A model generated the notes under the pieces. That model was not told the DNA's origin and made no database searches. It was given only the letters and a program-made list of their open reading frames with translations. This document shows positions 3,416 through 64,000 of a stretch of 64,000 nucleotides of DNA, one piece after another; within the stretch, counting starts at the first letter, position 1, and each line of letters opens with the position of its first letter. The position numbers were made by a program, and so were the translations under genes. Source of the stretch: Octopus sinensis (lineage: Eukaryota); the NCBI RefSeq assembly GCF_006345805.1, contig NC_043005.1, positions 23,684,001 to 23,748,000 of the forward strand, given 5' to 3'.

Positions 3416-3551
3416 AACGTATCCGTTTGGCTGACGGTTCAAAAACTGACGGTCGCGTGGAATTATTTCACAATGGGACATGGGGAACGATTTGCGATGA
3501 TAGCTGGGACAATTATGATGCCAAAGTTGTTTGTAGAATGCTGGGTTTAAG
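3416..3551 (+). CDS. SRCR domain 1, N-terminal half exon (internal exon; upstream exons not identified)
   Basis: aacag| acceptor and AG|GTGAG donor; reads (E)[44 protein letters not shown], matching the SRCR pattern RL..G....GRVE....G.WGT.CDD.W....A.VVCR.LG. Phase 1 in, phase 2 out. Confidence 0.95.
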
Positions 3552-3573
3552 GTGAGAAAATTATTATTATTAC

Positions 3574-4620: not shown

Positions 4621-6526
4621 CTAACTCATGTCCACATCCTCCTCCATCCTCAACGCCTCATTCAAGATCAGAGCGGGTTCCGTGTCAGCGTTGCCTGGGT
4701 ACAAGTGATATTTCTCATTGAGCCCCTTCAGCCTAAACGTCACGTCAAACGTTATGACCTCCACAGCTATATGCGGAGGCCATTCGGGATCCTGTGTGAA
4801 GGCTAAAGGTGCTCCCTTATGGTGCTTTTCCACCACCTTTTCAACCTCTCCGCCTCTATAGAATAAGAAGATCAATAATTCGTCTTCCTCCGGGGGAGGT
4901 ATATCTAATTCTTCCGTTGGCGGCACAGTTCTCGCCAACGGTGTCTCTTCTCCTGCCGGTGGCACAACCCCAAACGATGTAGTTCCGGGACATTCCGGTA
5001 CTATGTCACCGAATGCCGGCAATGTCCCATTTCCTCTTCTTCTTTTTTTTCTTTTCAACTGAGGAAAGATGTGTCTCCTCCGTGACCGGGAGATTCGCCT
5101 CCCCATCCTCATCCCTAGGATCCTTCGGTGAGCACCCATTGTTGCTCACCTTCTTCCTCTTGCGGCCCCTGTTTGAGGAGTCCTCTGCCTCCTCGGCCGC
5201 CTTCATTCCCTCCTCTACAGAGGTCTCACTCAACTGCTCCGGGACCTTATTTTGTTCCTGGGGACAATTTTTCACTGATAAAACCTGGTGGGGTGACTCT
5301 GAAGAATCACCGGATACCTGCACCCGGCCATTTAAAAAAAAATCTGGAAAAACCAGATTGGCTGATTGAGTCCAAAGGGTCAAAACAGCTTTTGACCCAA
5401 CCCAATCAGCTGCAGGAAAAACTTTCACATTAAGGAGCTTGGCTCCGCTGCCACCCAGATCCCGGCGGATAGTCTCCTCTATCCACTCGGGTTTTATCCC
5501 GGGTGGCAACCTGCAGACCCAAGCTTTCGTCAACCTCCTCCCACAATACGTGGGAAGAAACAAAATTTCCTCGCCCTCCAAGGGCTGACTCGCAAATTTG
5601 CGAGCCTCTTCAGGGGTATCAAATAGCAACCACACCGTTGCGTATTTGACACCCCTGGAAATGAATTTAATTGTTGGCAAATACTCCGCCAACTCCTTTT
5701 CAATTGCCGTCTTTTCGAATAGGGCGATGGTGTCGAGTGACTTGGAGTAGGTTCTCAACACCACCGTCCTATCTTCACGGTCTTTCAACCACTTTTTAGG
5801 CGGTACAACCTCCCACTCCAAAACTTTGTCCGTTTTCATTGCCATATTTCCCTCTTTTTTTTAAACGGTTCGAAAATAATTCAAAATAAAACTTAAAAAG
5901 GGAGAAGAAAAAAGAAATCAAAAGAAAGTCACAACAAAATGGAAAGGAGAAAAGGAAACAATTCACAAAAAAGAGAAAGTCAAATAAAGTTTAGAAGAAA
6001 GAAACAATAGTTCAGAAACACAGCAAAGAAATCTTCCGGCCATTCGGTACTCCCGGCCTAGGTTGAACCCGGAACGCTACAACTGGAACACAACTTCCAC
6101 AAAAACTGGTATACAAATTGTTCAATCTTCGGAGGCAAAGACACTCCCCCAAACAGCAGTTCTCACAATTATCTTAAAATTCTTCAAAAAGTGAACAAAT
6201 TTTTAGTAGGCATAATACACCCCCAAGCAACAATTCTCATAATTAAGTGAGAAAAATATTCATTCAACATAAACTACTAACTAGGAAGACGAATACGCGC
6301 CCAAACAAAAATTCTCACAATTATGCAGGCAGAACCAGAATTCTGAATCCAGTAGGACTTCTTGCCTGTATATAAAAAAAAAATTCTCAACAAAAATTCC
6401 CACTGGACCCCAAAAACAGAACCTTACCTTACAGTGGAGCTTCAACATTTTTCAATTCGAAACGGTTTTAAAAGCACGTCCCACCGCTTTGGTCCCAAAC
6501 ACCACAATTACTCGCACATGCGCAGT
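4621..6526 (-). mobile_element. ORF1-only non-LTR-like element, copy 1 (frameshifted ORF ~5845 to 4621)
   Basis: ORFs 5006..5845 and 4621..5139 align with the decayed ORF at ~46803-47608 (PPKKWLK...TVVLRTYS; FASQPLEG.EI.FLPTYCG; DELLIF.YRGGEVEK; FTQDPEWPP.IAVEVIT); the 5' UTRs are also homologous; the 5' end abuts a SINE A head. Confidence 0.85.
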
Positions 6527-6563
6527 GGAAGCAAGCTTCTTACCACACAGCCACGCCTGCGCC
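6527..6563 (-). mobile_element. SINE family A head, interrupted by the ORF1-only element
   Basis: Minus strand reads AGGCGCAGGCGTGGCTGTGTGGTAAGAAGCTTGCTTCC and then switches to the element 5' end (ACTGCGCATGTGCGAG). Confidence 0.88.
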
Positions 6564-6648: not shown

Positions 6649-6821
6649 CGACGGAACCGCTTTCACTAAGGCCTGGTTCTCCCAGGGCAAAGGAGAAATA
6701 TTCATGTCAGAAGTACAATGTTTGGGGTCCGAATTATCTATTTGGGAATGTCCATTCAAAAGAGAGCACTTTTGTTCTCATCGTGAAGACGCTTCTGTTG
6801 TTTGTAGTGAACGTCGAAATG
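6649..6821 (+). CDS. SRCR domain 1, C-terminal half exon
   Basis: ttttatttag| acceptor, G|GTAAAT donor; phase 2 joins the previous exon (AG+C=Ser); reads SDGTAFTKAWFSQGKGEIFMSEVQCLGSELSIWECPFKREHFCSHREDASVVCSERRN (SRCR F.QG.G.I....V.C.G.E..I..C...C.H.EDA.V.C). Confidence 0.93.
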
Positions 6822-41559: not shown

Positions 41560-42345
41560 TGTTTTGTTCATCATCCTTTAATCCTTCGGATGATCTTGCA
41601 GATTTTTATTGTCCCAGATATCGCGATCATTTCTAGTTTATAAATTACGGAGTTGTGTTCTCTATCCAAGAACCCAATTTCAGCCACATTTTGCCCCTGA
41701 CGGGTTGACATGTAGCATGTTGTTCTAAAGATAATATGTATGAAGCTGAAAATGCATCTTAGGTATTGGATTTGCACACGCCTCATCAATGGTATATGTA
41801 TATTCTATTTCTCTTGTATTTTTCTAACTGAATTTGTGACCAGAGGGCAGCTGATTTCCACAATAGCGCCTCTGGGCGGTTGTGTTTCAATTTCGTGGCC
41901 GTTTTAATTTTCAAGTTTCACCGATATTCTTTTGATCCACTGATCTCAACATACTCAACTTTATCGGAGTGTTTTTTTCTTTTGGTGATCCTGTTCCAGA
42001 TTGTTCTCGCTACTGCATCATGCCTCATGGGAAGATAATATCTGGAAGACATTCTCTCGCAGATGGCAATAATGTGGATGATGTCTTCAGCTTTGGGATG
42101 GCAATAATGTGGATGATGTCTTCAGCTTTGGTCTTGCACAGTCTGCATTTTTTGTCTATTAGTGTTTTCAACCTTTTAATCTGTTGGTACTCGGTAGGGG
42201 CCTCTTGTTCTTGGATTGCTTGGTGGTAACCTTCAAAGCGTGATATCATAAACATATTAGTACTCCTTGCCAAGCTTTTCATATTATTTTCTCGAATCTT
42301 TCGGGCCAAGTATCCACGCAATATCCTTCCGGTGCACTGGCCCGA
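41560..42345 (-). mobile_element. Decayed RLE non-LTR retrotransposon 3' fragment
   Basis: SRFEGYHQAIQEQE...KCRLCKTKAEDIIHII (zinc knuckle); C-terminus ISGTIKICK, homologous to 50060-50238. Confidence 0.82.
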
Positions 42346-42899: not shown

Positions 42900-43808
42900 T
42901 CCCTCCTCCTCTCCTCCTCCTCCCCCCCTCCCCATCCTCGATCTCCTCTTCCTCCTCCCCCTATCGATCTCCTCCTCCTCCTCCTCCTCCTCCTCCTCGT
43001 CTTCTTCATCATCATCCTCGTCCTCATCATCTTTCTTTTCTCTTCCACCTCGTCTTTTTCCTCCCACTCCTTTCCACCCCCTCCTCCTCTCCCTGCCTCA
43101 TATCCTCCTTCCCTTCCTTCCCCTCCTCCCCTCTCCTCTCCCCTCTCCCCGCTCCCCATCCTCCCCTTCGACACACCTCCTCCAACCTCCCTTCCTCCTT
43201 TCCCCTTCCTCTTCCTCTTCCTCTTCTTCTTATGATATCACGCTTTGAAGGTTACCACCAAGCAATCCAAGAACAAGAGGCCCCTACCGAGTACCAACAG
43301 ATTAAAAGGTTGAAAACACTAATAGACAAAAAATGCAGACTGTGCAAGACCAAAGCTGAAGACATCATCCACATTATTGCCATCCCAAAGCTGAAGACAT
43401 CATCCACATTATTGCCATCTGCGAGAGAATGTCTTCCTCTTCTTCTTCCTCCCCTCCTTCTCCTCCTCCTCTTCTTCTTCTTCTTCCTCCTCCTCCACCT
43501 CTCCTCATTCTCCCCTCTTTTTCTTCTTCTCCTCCTCCTCCTCATCATCATCATCATCATCCCCTCCCCTCCCCTCCTCTCCTCCTCCACTCGTTCCTCC
43601 TGATCCACCTCTCCTCCCTCTCCCCCTCTTCTTTTCCTCCTCTCCTCTCCTCCCCTCCTCCCTCCCCTCTCCTCCTCCTCTCCTCCTCCACTTGTTCCTC
43701 CTCCTCCACTTTTCCTCCTCCTCATGTTCGTCCGCCTCTTCCTCCACTTCTTCCCTTCCCATCCCCTTCCTCCGCCTCCTCTTCTTCTTCTTCCTCATAT
43801 CGTCGTTG

Positions 43809-44789: not shown

Positions 44790-46031
44790 CGAGGGGTGTA
44801 TGAAACGTTTTGAGCCTAACCTAGAAACGGGGCTGCTAGGTAGCTGAAACAATTTTTTTCTGGTAAGTACAGTCTTTTCAGTGTATTCAAGCTCATTTTC
44901 ATGATACTGTTATTTTAATTTTTTGTTTGTTGCAGACTTTTAAATAAACAAGTGTTGAGGTTACATGGAAAATGGAGAAAACTGAGTATCGTGCTGTCAT
45001 AAAGTACCTTCATTTGAAAGGCATGGCTCCATCAGAAATCCATGAAGATATGTTGAGATCCTTAACAGACAATGCTCCTTCATATGCAACAGTCAAACGC
45101 TGGGTAAATGAATTCCAGCATGGCAGGGAGAGTGTGGAAGATGATCCCAGACCAGGGAGACCTCCAACTGCAACCATCGGGGACAACGTTGACCTTGCTC
45201 TTGGTATGATAATGCAAGATCGTCGAATATCATGTCATCAGATAGCCGAGAGACTGGGCATCTCAGCTGAAAGAGCAGACAACAGTGTAACAAAAGAACT
45301 TGGGTTCTCAAAGGTTTCTGCAAGGTGGGTCCCTCGCCTTTTGACTCCTGAACATAAATGCATTTTGTTCACGAGCAATCTAGAACTGTTTGAAACCAAT
45401 GAAGAGAATTTTATTGCTTGTTTTATTACTATAGACGAAAGTTGGGTTCATCACTACCAGCCTGAAACCAAAGAACAATCAAAGCAGTGGAAGCACACAT
45501 CTTCTCCTACCCCAAAGAAGGCCAGGGTCATTCCTTCAGCTGGCAAGGACATGGCGTCAGGTTTTTTCTGATTCTCAAGGTGTCTTGCTGATCGATTATC
45601 TTGGAAAGGGTTACACCATGACAGGACTGTATTATTCTCAGTTACTGAAACGCCTCCGGGAAGCTATCAAAGAAAAAAGGCCGGAGGAGTTCTTTTTCAT
45701 CACGACAATGCTCCAGCCCACACCTCGTGATTGTGGATATGAACTTGTTCTCCATCCACATTATTCACCAGACTTAGCCCCCACTGACTTTCATCTATTC
45801 CCCAAAATTAAAAAAGCCCTGGCTGGTCGCCATTTTACCAATGATACAGATGCTGTAGGAAGTTTCTTGGAGTCTCAAACAAAAGAGTTCCTCTACGCCA
45901 GGATAATGGCACTTCAGTACCGCTGGAGAAAGTGTTCAGCCATCGAGGGGGACTATGTTGAAAAATAAATCATCAGAAGTCTTGTACTGTTTTGTATTTT
46001 TTGGGGCTCAAGACTTTTCATACACTCCTCG
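44790..46031 (+). mobile_element. Mariner transposon with pseudogenised transposase (44972-45968)
   Basis: TIRs CGAGGGGTGTATGAAACGTTTTGAGCC / GGCTCAAGACTTTTCATACACTCCTCG with TA TSD; motifs WVPRLL, TIDESWVHHY, YSPDLAPTDFHLF; frameshifts near 45570 and 45690. Confidence 0.97.
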
Positions 46032-46165: not shown

Positions 46166-46214
46166 AAATAGAATAAGGCGCAGAAGTGGCGGTGTGGTAA
46201 GTAGCTTGCTTACC

Positions 46215-48127
46215 TCATTGTGCATGAGCGAGACAGAATTGTGTTTGACACCGAAGCGGCAAGACGTGCTTTTGAAGACGTCTTAAATTGAAGACTTTTG
46301 AAACTTAGCAGCAAGGTAAGACTTTCTTCTGTCTTGTGAGAGCCTGTTGTAATTCGCGATTATTTTTAAAAACAAGAAGTCCTCACTAGACTGTAGTCTA
46401 CCTGAGGTTGAGTGAAAATATTTATTCACTTAATTGTGAAAATATTTATTCATTTAATTGTGAAAATTATTGGTTTGGTGGGCGTATACTGCCAAAAATT
46501 TTTTTGTCTGAAAATAGTGTTTCAACAATATTGTTCCTGTCAAGGAGTACCTAGAAGAAAATTGAAATGATTTTTAACTGTTTTACAATTGTGTTAAAAT
46601 TTTGGCCTGGAGTACCAAGTAGCCTTTGCTGTATTTTGAACTGTTGCTCTCTATTTTTTAAAAAAACTCTTTATTGAACTGTTAATTTTTTTCTCTCCTT
46701 CCTTTTTGTTTGGACTTTTTTTCCTCTTCCTTCTTTTTCTTTAATTATCTTATATTTTAACGACTGTATTTTTGAACTCTTTAAAAAAACAACAAAAAAA
46801 ACATGGCAAATAACAATGAAAAGTTGGTGAAGTAGGAAATTACACCACCCAAAAAATGGTTAAAAGAACTTGAAAGTAAGACGGTGGTTTTGAGGACCTA
46901 CTCTAGAACCCTCGACGCCATTGCCGTTTTCAGGAAAAAAGCTGGCAGAATTTAAGCCAGCGATTAAGTTTATCACTCGGGGGGGGGGGTCAAATACGCA
47001 ACCGTGTGGCCCAGAAGTGGCCCGTGAATTTGCAAGTCAGCCCCTGGAGGGCAATGAAATTTTCTTTCTTCCCACTTATTGTGGAAAGAGTCTGACGAGG
47101 GCTTGGGTTTGCGGCTAGCCACCCGGATTTCATTCCCAGTGGATAGGAGATACTATCACCAAGCTCCTCAGCGTAAATATTCTGTCTGCAGCTGACTGGG
47201 AGGGGTAAGTCGGAGACATGATGCCGGAGTGTCACGGAGCATCGTCGGTTGTGCCACCGGAGGGGGGAGACACCATTGGCGGGAATTGTGCCGCCAACGG
47301 TAAAATTGACCCCCTAGGACCCGGAATACGATGAACTGTTGATCTTCTTTTATAGAGGCGGAGAGGTGGAAAAGCTAGTGAAAGAACACTACGAGGGAAT
47401 ACCTTTGGTCTTCACACAGGACCCAGAATGGCCTCCTTAGATAGCTGTGGAGGTCATAACGTTGCGCGTGTTTATAAAGCTGGAGGGACTAAAAGAGGAA
47501 TATCGCTCGTGGCCGGGTGACGCCAACTCGGAGCCCGCCTTGATTTTAAAGGAAGCATGGGCTATGGGGGAGTACACGGACACAAGCGATGATGAGGTGG
47601 AAAATTGACAAGAGGTTGAAAAGCCTCAGCGTTATAATGTGTAAGAGGGTCAGTAAATGTACTAGTGTTGATTGTATATTGAATATTTCATTGTATGTTA
47701 TTGCATGTTGTTGACTATTAAGTCCAATAATTGTTAGAACTGTAGTGAGAGGTTCAATACCTCGTTGAGGTGGAAAAATTGACAAGAGGTTGAAAAGCCT
47801 CAGCGTTATAATGTGTAAGAGGCTCAGCGCCTCATTTGTAAATGAACTAGCGTTGATTGTATATTGAATATTTTTTGCATGTTAATATTTGTAATGGACT
47901 ATAAAGTCCAATAATTGCAAAAACTGTTGTGAGAGGTTCAATACCTCGTTTTGTTTATTCTGTTGAAAAAAGAAAAGAACAATGTCTTAGAGAAGCAGAA
48001 AATCGGCGGCCGTTTTTTGCCTTCTCTTATCAATAGCAACCTTATTTTATCATTCACCTCATCAATGTATATGTCCATCCCACATGCTATTCTATGTAAT
48101 GACTTTATGGCAAATTTCAATGAAATA
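46215..48127 (+). mobile_element. ORF1-only non-LTR-like element, copy 2, inserted in a SINE A head with TSD
   Basis: SINE head at 46177-46214 ends AAGTAGCTTGCTTACC; after the element's AATAAA the SINE resumes AAGTAGTTACTTACC-AACCATATG (48128-48510). Decayed ORF from ATG ~46803 is homologous to 4621-5845. No RT or endonuclease motifs seen. Confidence 0.88.
47593..47950 (+). repeat. ~175-bp tandem duplication in the element 3' UTR
   Basis: GAGGTGGAAAATTGACAAGAGGTTGAAAAGCCTCAGCG...GAGAGGTTCAATACCTCGTT occurs twice. Confidence 0.9.
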
Positions 48128-48542
48128 AAGTAGTTACTTACCAACCATATGATTCCGGGTTCATTCCCACTGCATGGCACCTTAGGCAAGTGTCTTCTAC
48201 TATAGCCTCGGGCCGACCAAAACCTTGTGAGTGGATTTGGTAAACGGAGACTGAAAGAAGCCCGTCGTACATATATATATATATGTATGTGTGTGTATAT
48301 GTTTGTGTGTCTATGTTTGTCCCCCCAACATCACTTGACGACCGATGGTTGTGTGTTTACGTCCCTGTCACTTAGCGGTTCAGCAAAAGTGACCGATAGA
48401 GTAAGTACTAGGCGTCCAAAGAATAAGTCCCGGGGTCGATGTGCTCGACTAAAGGCGGTGCTCCATCATGGCCGCAGTCAAATGACTAAAACAAGTAAAA
48501 GAGTAAAGAGTAAACATCGTATGCATATTCATCCCTAAACAA

Positions 48543-51500: not shown

Positions 51501-54500
51501 AATAGGTCAGATATAGTTGTCACAGATCATGAAAAAAAAATGCTTTCTAATTGATGTATCAATATCAGCAGATGGCAACGTTTCTCTAAAAGAAATGGAG
51601 AAACTTTCAAAATACAAAGACCTGGAAATAGAGGTAACTCGAATGTGGAATCTAAAAACAGAAACAATTTACAGGCCTCCCCAGGCACCTCTAAAGTACT
51701 TTGAAGAGTGCCTTAGCAAAGTCAAGTCCTTCCTTCGGAAGTACCACTCCGGAAACATAATAGTGATGGGTGATTTTAACCTCCCTCATGTGAACTGGCC
51801 CACAAATACTCCGAAGTTGGGCAAGTGCTCTACATCAGATAGGGCAGCAGCAGAACTGCTCTTTAATCTGATGGATGAGTATTTCCTGACTCAGCTAGTG
51901 CTTGAACCAACGAGACAGAATAAAACGATCTTGGATCTGGTACTGACCAATCACTCTAGCTACGTTCACAGCATTTCAGTCGAAAAAACTCTCCTCTCAG
52001 ACCACGACATGGTACTCTGCAATCTTAATTCCCGACGTATAAAAACCAAACCAGCCAATCCCACTCCATGGCACCCATTTGACAACATAAATTTCCACAA
52101 AGCGGACTGGGGAACAATCAGAAAGGATCTGTCTTCCATCGACTGGTCTTTTACTCTCAATTCCCCTCATATTGAGACCGCGTGGCAGCACTTTGAAACC
52201 ATTGTCACCTACACATGCTCTAAACACGCTCCCAAGAAATCTACTAACACAAACAGAAACCGGCTCCCTAAAAAGAAAAAAACACTCATCAGGCGCATCA
52301 AAAGACTCAACAAAAAAATCAACCAATTAAAATATTCCCACACGCAACATCCACATTCAACAACAATGAAAAGACTGGAGCTGGAAAAACTTCATCTGCA
52401 GACTAACATGAAAACCTCCATTGAAAATCAAAGAGCTGTGGAGGAACAATGGGTAATCAAAAACATCAAACAGAACCCAAAAGTGTTCTATTCTTATGCA
52501 AATAAGCATAGAACCACTGTCTCACCTATTGGGCCATTGATTGATGAAAACGGCATTCCCCAACACGATGCTAAAGAAATGGCAGAAATACTGCAGAAAC
52601 AATGTTGCTCTGTCTTCAGTGTTCCCACTGATATTGATGTGAGGGAAACGAACGAAGCTGACTCCCAACTCAAAATCGCAGACATAACCTTCACTGCCAC
52701 CGACATCGTAGCAGCAATAAATGAGGTCAAACATTACTCCGCTGTAGGCCCTGATAGATTTCCCGCCAGTCTCCTGAAGGAATGTAGATATCAACTTGCA
52801 GTCCCTCTGACCAACCTCTGGAGAAACTCGTTAGACGCAGGTTATATACCGAAAAAGTTTCTATCCCAGTCGGTCATCCCGGTTTTCAAACAGGGAAACA
52901 GATCCCTCGCAGTCAACTATCGCCCAATCTCACTCACCTCCCACATCATTAAAGTGTTTGAAAGAGTGTTAAGATCAAGGATAGCTGACTTCCTGGAGAC
53001 CCACAAACTCCTAAATTCAAATCAACATGGCTTTCGCTGTGGCAGGGACTGTCTAACACAGCTCTTACACCACATTGAAGATGTACTCAAAGCCTTGGGA
53101 ACAGGTTCGAACTCTGACGTCATATACCTTGACTTCAGTAAAGCGTTCGACAGGGTAGACCATAACATCCTACTCTCAAAATTGGCAAATGTTGGAATCC
53201 GTGGAAAAGTTCTACACTGGATTCAGTATTTCCTAGCGAATAGAACACAACATGTAGTTGATGGAGTCCACTCAAACCCAGCAAAAGTCACCAGCGGTGT
53301 TCCCCAGGGAACTGTTTTGGGTCCGCTACTCTTCATAATTTATGTAAACGACCTTTCCAGTGTCGTACATCACTGCAAAGTGAAAATATTCGCTGATGAC
53401 ACTAAGCTCCAGCAAATCGTTAATGAAGAAGCAGACCGAACTCAACTCCAGTCTGACCTATATGCTGTGAGTCAATGGGCAGACAGAAACAAAATGCAAC
53501 TGAATGAGGGAAAATTTGAGCTGATGCATTTTGGAAGAAATTCCTCACTAAAACAACCATACTCTCTTCCTTCAGGGGAACCGCTCACAGCCTCTAACAA
53601 TATCAGAGACCTGGGTGTAATTGTTGATGACGATCTCAGTTGGAGTGCACACATCAACAAGAAGGTCGATACAGCTCGTAGGATGAGTTCCTAGATCTTA
53701 AGAACTTTCCGGTCCAGAGAACAAGGTGTCATCATACCACTTTTTTCATCCTTTGTACGGCCACACCTTGAATACTGCTGCCCACTGTGGTCTCCTCACA
53801 CAAGACAAAACATCTCCAGAATTGAGTCACCCCAGAGGGCTCTCACTAAACAAATTGAAGGCATGGCTGCTCTCGACTATTGGGATCGCCTTAAAGCCTT
53901 GAAACTTTACTCCCTCCAGCGTCGCCGTGAGCGGTACATCATTTGTACGATGTGGAAAATATACCGCCAACTTTGCCCAAACGACCTAAACATTAGCTTC
54001 AAGGTTCATCCGAGACTTGGACCACGGGCTATACGTCCCCTGCCAAATTCAAGATCACAACATACATGTACACTGCAACATAATTTCTTTTCCTCAACAG
54101 GCCCTGCCCTATTTAACATTGTCCCGAGGGAGATCAAAGAGGAAAAGGATCCCATCAACTTCAAACAGAGTCTGGGTAGATTCCTTCAAAGAATACCAGA
54201 TAAGCCACCCATAATTGGATACAACTCACCCAACAAGAACTCACTACTTGAACAAAACTGGATACAACTCACCCAACAAGAACTCACTACTTGAACAAAA
54301 CTTGACTTAAACAGGATTCGAATAATCCTATCAGGTGGTGCTATTAAGTTAGACATGGCCTGGACCAATCTCTGGTCGAAACATATCTAAGTTCTAAGTT
54401 CTAAGTTTTATCATAGTAGGTGCATTAGGCAGGATAAAAAAATATTCAGACAATTACATAACAAAAACTTTAGGACTTACAAATATATACAACATACAGA

Positions 54501-56526: not shown

Positions 56527-59032
<2,506 letters not shown>

Positions 59033-62596: not shown

Positions 62597-62734
<138 letters not shown>

Positions 62735-62744
62735 TATATATATA

Positions 62745-64000
62745 TGACTCACCTGAACAACACCCATATGGACGCAGAGGTGAAAATAAAAGATTTCACC
62801 ATTGTTCGTGCGGATCGCACAGACCGAAATAAGGGAGGGACAGCCATCTTTATCCATGACTCCTTTTCACTTGATGCCAAGGACACATTTTCCAATACCT
62901 ACTGTGAATCGGTATCAGTATACAACAAAGCCAAGGACATAACCATTGTTGGTCTTTACAGGCCTCCCCAGGCACCTCTAAAGTACTTTGAAGAGTGCCT
63001 TAGCAAAGTCAAGTCCTTCCTTCGGAAGTACCACTCCGGAAACATAATAGTGATGGGTGATTTTAACCTCCCTCATGTGAACTGGCCCACAAATACTCCG
63101 AAGTTGGGCAAGTGCTCTACATCAGATAGGGCAGCAGCAGAACTGCTCTTTAATCTGATGGATGAGTATTTCCTGACTCAGCTAGTGCTTGAACCAACGA
63201 GACAGAATAAAACGATCTTGGATCTGGTACTGACCAATCACTCTAGCTACGTTCACAGCATTTCAGTCGAAAAAAACTCTCCTCTCAGACCACGACATGG
63301 TACTCTGCAATCTTAATTCCCGACGTATAAAAACCAAACCAGCCAATCCCACTCCATGGCACCCATTTGACAACATAAATTTCCACAAAGCGGACTGGGG
63401 AACAATCAGAAAGGATCTGTCTTCCATCGACTGGTCTTTTACTCTCAATTCCCCTCATATTGAGACCGCGTGGCAGCACTTTGAAACCATTGTCACCGAC
63501 ACATGCTCTAAACACGCTCCCAAGAAATCTACTAACACAAACAGAAAACCGGCTCCCTAAAAAGAAAAAAACACTCATCAGGCGCATCAAAAGACTCAAC
63601 AAAAAAATCAACCAATTAAAATATTCCCACACGCAACATCCACATTCAACAACAATGAAAAGACTGGAGCTGGAAAAACTTCATCTGCAGACTAACATGA
63701 AACCTCCATTGAAAATCAAAGAGCTGTGGAGGAACAATGGGTAATCAAAAACATCAAACAGAACCCAAAAGTGTTCTATTCTTATGCAAATAAGCATAGA
63801 ACCACTGTCTCACCTATTGGGCCATTGATTGATGAAAACGGCATTCCCCAACACGATGCTAAAGAAATGGCAGAAATACTGCAGAAACAATATTGCTCTG
63901 TCTTCAGTGTTCCCACTGATATTGATGTGAGGGAAACGAACGAAGCTGACTCCCAACACAAAATCGCAGACATAACCTTCACTGCCACCGACATCGTAGC
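62745..64000 (+). mobile_element. Second copy of the young CR1-clade LINE, next to (TA)n, running off the window
   Basis: From ~62956 near-identical to 51668 onward; extends further 5' into the APE domain (RADR...GGTAIFI); single-base frameshifts near 63275, 63548 and 63700. Confidence 0.96.

Follow-up and report, generated by a model that had tools for sequence, protein, structure and literature searches.

The 64,000-nt window analysed here, a stretch of contig NC_043005.1 of Octopus sinensis, contains two ORF1-only retrotransposon copies on opposite strands, each beginning at the same position of a SINE head. This raises the question of whether such elements insert repeatedly and independently at one fixed site and, if so, whose enzymes insert them and what directs them to that site.

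The minus-strand copy and its ORF1

The stretch 4621-6563 was confirmed, as judged from its sequence, as a copy, broken and truncated at its 3' end, of an abundant HAL1-like retrotransposon of the L1/Tx1 type that encodes ORF1 only, and it is a dead relic. Read on the minus strand, a SINE head is followed by the target motif AAGAAGCTTGCTTCC, the 5' UTR and ORF1, in agreement with the junction reported in the first-pass annotation; the last few bases of the motif may be a tag brought by the element RNA. The copy lies antisense within an intron dividing one SRCR domain, whose half-exons were found on either side of it (Table 1), as had also been proposed. Two overlapping frames of 279 and 172 aa had been described, and these frames exist (the second measures 174 aa from stop to stop), but not as separate ORFs. 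Alignment to four other copies locates three indels: one nucleotide is inserted at ~5340, 22 nt that include the core of the CCHC knuckle are lost at ~5272, and a further 5 nt are missing at ~5035. Intact copies of the family have a single ORF of 422-425 aa, and the two frames are one decayed ORF of ~425 aa interrupted by these changes. The loss of the 3' end and of the SINE remainder was likewise borne out: beyond ~4625, where homology stops, the 3' UTR, the tail and the rest of the SINE are all missing, and the nearest following SINE (4167) has the opposite orientation.

Table 1. Positions of the two ORF1-only copies and of the flanking host features in the window
Feature	Position	Strand	Basis or remark
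Host SRCR half-exon, profile 5-43, upstream of intron	3439..3555	+	profile match
C-terminal ~90-aa alpha/beta domain (predicted), unmatched; element homology ends here	4624..4887	-	alignment, model
Low-complexity linker, Lys/Arg tracts, 5-nt deletion near 5035	4888..5265	-	alignment
Remnant of single CCHC knuckle, with 22-nt deletion	5266..5290	-	alignment
ORF1 N-terminal part, two predicted RRM-like domains	5312..5845	-	ATG at 5845
Element 5' UTR, CCACTGCG-start subfamily	5846..6526	-	about 680 nt
Target motif, AAGA variant, left copy of duplication	6527..6541	-	sequence
Host SINE head, 5' part (A-box-like), 5' of insertion site	6542..6563	-	sequence, alignment
Host SRCR half-exon, profile 51-100, downstream of intron	6668..6808	+	profile match
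SINE head and target motif, AAGT variant	46177..46213	+	head 46177-46198, target from 46199
Older ORF1-only element, internally deleted, complete 3' tail	46214..48127	+	alignment, tree
Right duplication and SINE remainder	48128..48515	+	sequence

The subfamily of this copy (L002, L003, L004, L006, L012, L024 and L169) has an internal element tail and target motif, which appear to be a captured downstream neighbour. A splice-donor-like motif is present at ~6425 (-) in the 5' UTR, with a pyrimidine tract ahead of the ATG. Of 49 loci, 42 have such a motif 60-220 nt downstream of the 5' junction (counted without a control), and an acceptor-like sequence precedes the LINE ATG in the 5' UTR of L068, a full-length LINE described below. 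No genomic copies of a precisely spliced element were seen among the loci inspected; contigs of four presumed-RNA runs match parts of a copy, with no joint at the donor motif among the matches listed.

The second copy is only 69-74% identical to the first in alignment and, therefore, the pair is not a recent duplication. This agrees with the first-pass annotation, which had also noted that the SINE variants differ (AAGA at the minus-strand copy, AAGT at the second). The second copy sits on a long branch of the tree and preserves both junctions. Its 3' UTR contains a tandem duplication of ~165 nt (47590-47950), and the region just upstream, 44790-46030, is presumably a decayed mariner-like transposase. 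Elsewhere, the window contains a perfect inverted repeat of 208 nt (42044-42251 and 43230-43437, spacing 978 nt) and a long LINE ORF2 of another type (51517-54294), of which a near-identical partial second copy lies 11 kb away (62729-63744).

The N-terminal half of ORF1 corresponds, according to the predicted model, to an ordinary LINE ORF1 layout with two RRM-like domains and a CCHC. Residues 1-205 (pLDDT 81) resemble tandem RRM proteins, with 61 PDB matches at E<=0.001 (Raver1 best, 1.7e-5); the zf-CCHC profile is matched by 12 of 18 aligned ORF1s, and the Atlas lists ZCCHC3-like clusters for ORF1 at 0.90. A homology search with ORF1 returned two relatives only, both annotated Octopus proteins. 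Estimates of dN/dS across genomic copies, a check suggested by the first-pass annotation, were 0.11-0.47 in 55 of 55 pairs for the N-terminus (stop-free segments chosen), indicating purifying selection between subfamilies. For the C-terminal block they were 0.22-1.54 (45 pairs) and 0.45-0.68 between the most distant groups, and its constraint appears weak, although the block is retained in distant half-families at 24-36% identity. These C-terminal 93 aa are predicted to form a small alpha/beta domain (pLDDT 78.5). The block had not been recognised at first reading and it found no match in Pfam or the Atlas, no profile match among 1.84 billion representatives, no significant fold match (Foldseek best E 0.37, VIA best Z 4.8) and no similarity (0.2%) to the C-terminus of the partner ORF1 described below; a missing match does not prove a new fold. 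As to whether the protein could be a standard LINE ORF1 followed by ORF2, which would have spoken against the first reading, the N-terminal half is indeed an ordinary ORF1, but no ORF2 was found after it in the family loci inspected.

A family of half-elements at one SINE site

A genome search with ORF1 gave 10,624 first-look candidates, 150 of which were scored; 50 loci were fetched by ORF1 and, after removal of two duplicates of a third, 48 were classified. The family inserts into a tRNA-like SINE head between GGT and AAG(A/T)AG. The 5' junction adjoins a SINE head (35 loci) or the tail of another element (7) in 42 of the 48, the other 6 being unclassed, while the 3' end adjoins the SINE remainder in 40 and the target motif plus other sequence in 4, and was not reached in the remaining 4. 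No ORF2 was found within 2-3 kb of the ATG in these 48 loci: family members consist of one ORF1 with UTRs and have no ORF2 before the 3' end (the minus-strand copy lacks its own 3' end), and are hereafter called half-elements. Genome-wide, the target follows 88 of 95 exact element ends (7 of 95 are without an exact target), and 347 AAGA and 948 AAGT exact junctions were counted among 118,284 sites (18,717 AAGA and 99,567 AAGT). These matches are not due to chance: where the patterns themselves were matched 302, 95, 88, 347 and 948 times, their reversed versions, run as controls, had 0 matches in the whole genome. An automatic junction-pairing tally (99/118) contained many false 5' junctions and was set aside in favour of the 48-locus classing.

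The family comprises many dispersed copies with target-site duplications (9-17 nt in truncated copies) and 5' truncations; no poly(A) was found at the junctions of the loci inspected, and heterologous elements are stacked head to tail with a single target motif between neighbours. Several loci are individually peculiar: L025, L026 and L027 are identical and come from two small contigs, which could reflect either a duplication or redundancy of the assembly, L097 has a SINE head inserted inside a duplication, L069 is a half-element split by an RT fragment and in L074 a 1.3-kb unit comprising element end and SINE is duplicated in tandem. The host SINE is the commonest short repeat of the genome, and A and B box-like motifs are visible in its head, for which ARAGORN and Rfam gave no tRNA match. 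Octopus SINEs go by the names OR1, OR2 and OK.

A second ORF1-only group occupies the same site (L222, L226, L227, L229, L237, L249, L268 and L272; about 1.45-1.7 kb where measured). This group likely had an independent origin, because its ORF1 is nearer to the autonomous ORF1s (32-46% identity) than to that of the family of the minus-strand copy (23-29%).

A probable partner LINE and the choice of SINE variant

ORF2 sequence was contained in 2 of 30 junction loci, L061 and L068, both of them 5.4 kb long and carrying ORF1 as well as ORF2 (Exo_endo_phos, RVT_1 and zf-RVT). This ORF2 has the layout of the L1/Tx1 group (APE endonuclease, RT and C-terminal zinc-binding domain), and the best solved relative of its endonuclease is human L1 EN (E 9e-12); the Tx1 label is tentative and follows from domain layout and target specificity. 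A homology search with ORF2 returned four proteins, unnamed or hypothetical. All 30 of the closest (young) LINE copies terminate at the target, and what follows is the SINE remainder in 28 and a half-element in 2; older copies, down to 73%, mostly terminate there too, and a sister family at 65% terminates in (CT)n. Against the >20% of flanks of a single repeat type taken as a criterion in PMC4494074, SINE forms 28/30 autonomous and 40/48 half-element 3' flanks. At L154, what we take to be a reverse-oriented tRNA-like sequence lies in the 5' flank of a 5'-truncated LINE. The window itself contains a 5'-truncated L1/Tx1-type ORF2 within (CTAT)n at 56605-58930 (+), which was considered as the partner and rejected, since it ends in (CTAT)n. 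A young family related to it ends in (CT)n (L197-L203), and the L1/Tx1-type group appears to comprise several lineages, each with its own target.

Full and half-elements have ~30 terminal bases in common, including a 4-bp hairpin. This hairpin, drawn by eye on the same sequences, shows covariation (88% of cells paired, 24 double changes, 0/500 shuffles); RNAalifold predicted no consensus structure on the element tails, and a best-placement scan for the hairpin was noisy (54/80 vs up to 28/80 in controls). The ORF1s of half-family and partner are only ~28% identical and, therefore, the half-family does not derive from the present partner; a partnership between them would rest on the common tail and site. 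Our main reading, held at a probability of about 0.8, is that the SINE-site ORF1-only family is copied by the endonuclease and reverse transcriptase of the autonomous LINE that occupies the same site. The half-elements encode RRM-RRM-CCHC plus the C-terminal domain and no ORF2, and they join AAG(A/T)AG directly and without poly(A) through the same short tail and covarying hairpin as the full elements. The LINE ORF2 would bind this tail in trans and nick the bottom strand between GGT and AAG, with a second nick 9-17 nt off; the target site is seen to be regenerated at the 5' junction, where copies can stack in tandem. The insertion would separate the A and B boxes and so silence the host SINE copy.

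The two site variants are not used at random. Element tails and SINE variants are completely linked (GTAATG with AAGA in 49/49 and GTTATG with AAGT in 39/39, counted manually), and the variant is the same on both sides of the insertion in 35/35 loci. AAGA host SINEs form a distinct older class (11.7% vs 5.4%), and since, in addition, both sides agree, the variant is that of the genomic target. On the ORF1 tree the variant label requires 2 changes, compared with 11.9 when shuffled, and a young AAGT half-element clade is nested among AAGA-type copies. AAGT SINEs, 4.5-5.4% from their majority, are five-fold commoner than AAGA ones (18,717 of the 118,284 sites). The half-subfamilies diverge from their own majorities by 2.0 and 2.7% (AAGA, n=7 and 9) and by 2.3 and 3.1% (AAGT, n=5 and 13), in a comparison that spans different sequence types and in which the dated elements are top matches; a tail-based age of the GTAAT group (0.196) mixes subfamilies and was set aside. 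The two types of half-subfamily are separated by few tail bases. Sampling 60 of the 347 AAGA junctions (in listing order, known loci skipped) recovered ORF2 in 5, all old (14-23% from the nearest neighbour), while 6 of 20 AAGT junctions had ORF2, young copies among them. Long branches (0.06-0.11) are also seen for nine more LINE copies of the AAGA type, and a search with one such copy, in which 150 candidates were scored, found nothing nearer than the young AAGT family and none closer than 86% to L188. By contrast, some AAGA half-elements differ from one another by as little as 2.3-5%. Young AAGA half-elements probably used an enzyme encoded by LINEs that themselves insert at AAGT, because they are young and the sampled AAGA-type ORF2 copies are all old; with 0 young autonomous copies in 60 AAGA junctions, the upper bound is about 5% of the 347, and a few low-copy ones could have escaped.

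These patterns suggest that RNA-DNA pairing, besides the endonuclease, selects the target. The terminal AATA of the element and the AA of the target would form a polyadenylation signal spanning the junction, because of which the RNA is expected to end within the SINE remainder, into which transcripts would run on; one subfamily with internal tail and target is a sign of such read-through. The tail would then anneal to the nicked strand, favouring the SINE variant of the donor and holding each lineage to AAGA or AAGT sites, the variant base being placed fourth from the 3' end of the primer strand. A CTAAC-type tag occurs at the 5' junction in 5/6 informative copies (full-length young LINEs within TTAC-type SINEs), showing target-derived bases carried along at the 5' end of young LINEs. 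That the passenger RNA, and not the enzyme, picks the landing variant through such donor-derived tails is a tentative proposal, to which we give somewhat less than an even chance; it would fall if young AAGA-type LINEs existed at low frequency or if different types of sequence evolved at different rates. If true, half-LINE lineages served by one ORF2 keep to different single-base SINE variants for millions of years, a natural case of RNA-guided target choice in trans.

The variant could also be chosen by endonucleases alone, through AAGA- and AAGT-specific autonomous lineages that each mobilise half-elements of their own by stringent tail recognition. Autonomous copies do form separate AAGA and AAGT clades (3 changes, compared with 8.0 when shuffled), and Tx1L EN reads ~10 bp, enough to include the variant base (PMC1919474), but the age of every sampled AAGA-type ORF2 copy beside the closely related AAGA half-elements, and the few tail bases that distinguish the half-subfamilies, make this a doubtful though still serious explanation. 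It is unlikely, in our view, that the LINE also mobilises its own SINE target through a common tail, a self-amplifying loop that would be compatible with the main reading: the words ATGGC and TGAAA followed by AAGTA are found, by eye, at both ends, but alignment of the SINE tail to four LINE tails is no better than shuffles (566-1981 of 2000), the target follows 0/145 SINE tails, and SINEs end in AAAAGAGT repeats, TATAG, AATAG and CATAG mostly preceding them. A succession in time, with old elements meeting only AAGA SINEs and young ones mostly AAGT, would fit the greater age of AAGA hosts and the nested AAGT clade, and 39/39 AAGT gives P~0.001 only at 84% availability; it is nonetheless improbable, as 49/49 AAGA has P~2e-15 even at 50% availability and the half-subfamilies have similar ages, 2.0-2.7% for AAGA and 2.3-3.1% for AAGT, neither of which reaches the AAGT SINE median. 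Finally, amplification of a single ancestral element-bearing SINE as a composite, with which the covariation of element lineage and SINE variant would agree, is scarcely credible and is refuted for the sampled copies, above all by the greater divergence of host SINEs than of elements (9.9 vs 2.0%, n=25; 14.4 vs 5.8%, n=48) and by private SINE mutations duplicated on both sides of the insertion (L020, L023, L114, L148 and L158), but also by uncorrelated distances (rho -0.09 and 0.05 in the n=25 and n=48 sets), 5'-truncated copies that join SINE heads at many points and heterologous tandem stacks.

The repeated, independent and target-specific insertion proposed in the first-pass annotation is, thus, upheld by the junction counts, the divergence gap and the duplicated private mutations. 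Its opposite, that SINE heads and elements diverge as one unit, holds only in that variant and lineage covary; the uncorrelated distances speak against movement as a unit.

Relation to known elements

A SINE-targeting LINE, or a protein-coding half-LINE at the same target, was unreported in the literature searched, although Repbase and subscription papers may contain them. OR2 is described as an octopus SINE in PMC4758252, and the accessible text of PMC13282606 mentions Tx1 once, in a table, and does not use the word "target"; its supplements may contain these families. The two RNA-binding domains and the CCHC of ORF1 are also found in ZCCHC3-like proteins, from which ORF1 differs in being mobile and multicopy and in having one knuckle and an unmatched C-terminal domain. 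Dada transposons likewise target an A box, that of genes transcribed by Pol III (PMC8869645), but they are DNA transposons in true tRNA genes, with a chemistry unrelated to that of the SINE-site LINEs. A parallel is offered by R1Bm, which requires downstream target sequence, and SART1, whose RNA may anneal to the target (PMC7265360): a target-like RNA 3' end has been proposed to anneal to the nicked target, although R1Bm and SART1Bm belong to the R1 clade and have rDNA or telomere targets, whereas here the pairing would act in trans and is read from genomic patterns only.

Like the half-family, mammalian HAL1 is a non-autonomous ORF1-only LINE derivative with multiple origins (PMC5753468), and multiple origins are also suggested here by the second, 1.45-kb half-group with a different ORF1. 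The half-family is not HAL1 proper, given the lack of poly(A) at its junctions and its different type of ORF1: RRM-RRM-CCHC is unlike the mammalian L1 ORF1, and the site is sequence-specific and the host a mollusc. Among Tx1 families that target transposons, Tx1L inserts in Tx1D, Tx1-Mar in Mariner-N4_AMi, and Tx1-8_Crp is a further case (PMC4494074). As described there, these are APE-type LINEs with a fixed site within another mobile element, non-autonomous passengers at the same site and tandem insertions, and they have microsatellite sister families (Kibi and Koshi), comparable to the (CT)n and (CTAT)n families found here; the octopus system departs from them in its tRNA-like SINE head target, its protein-coding passenger and its partition by a single-base variant. 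The system combines two known kinds, a transposon-targeting L1/Tx1 LINE and a HAL1-like passenger, and what is new is the complete link of element tail variant to SINE variant. With its 1,295 or more junctions, out of some 118,000 sites, it is a large natural dataset for weighing endonuclease against RNA-DNA pairing in LINE targeting, a question relevant to LINE-based gene insertion tools.
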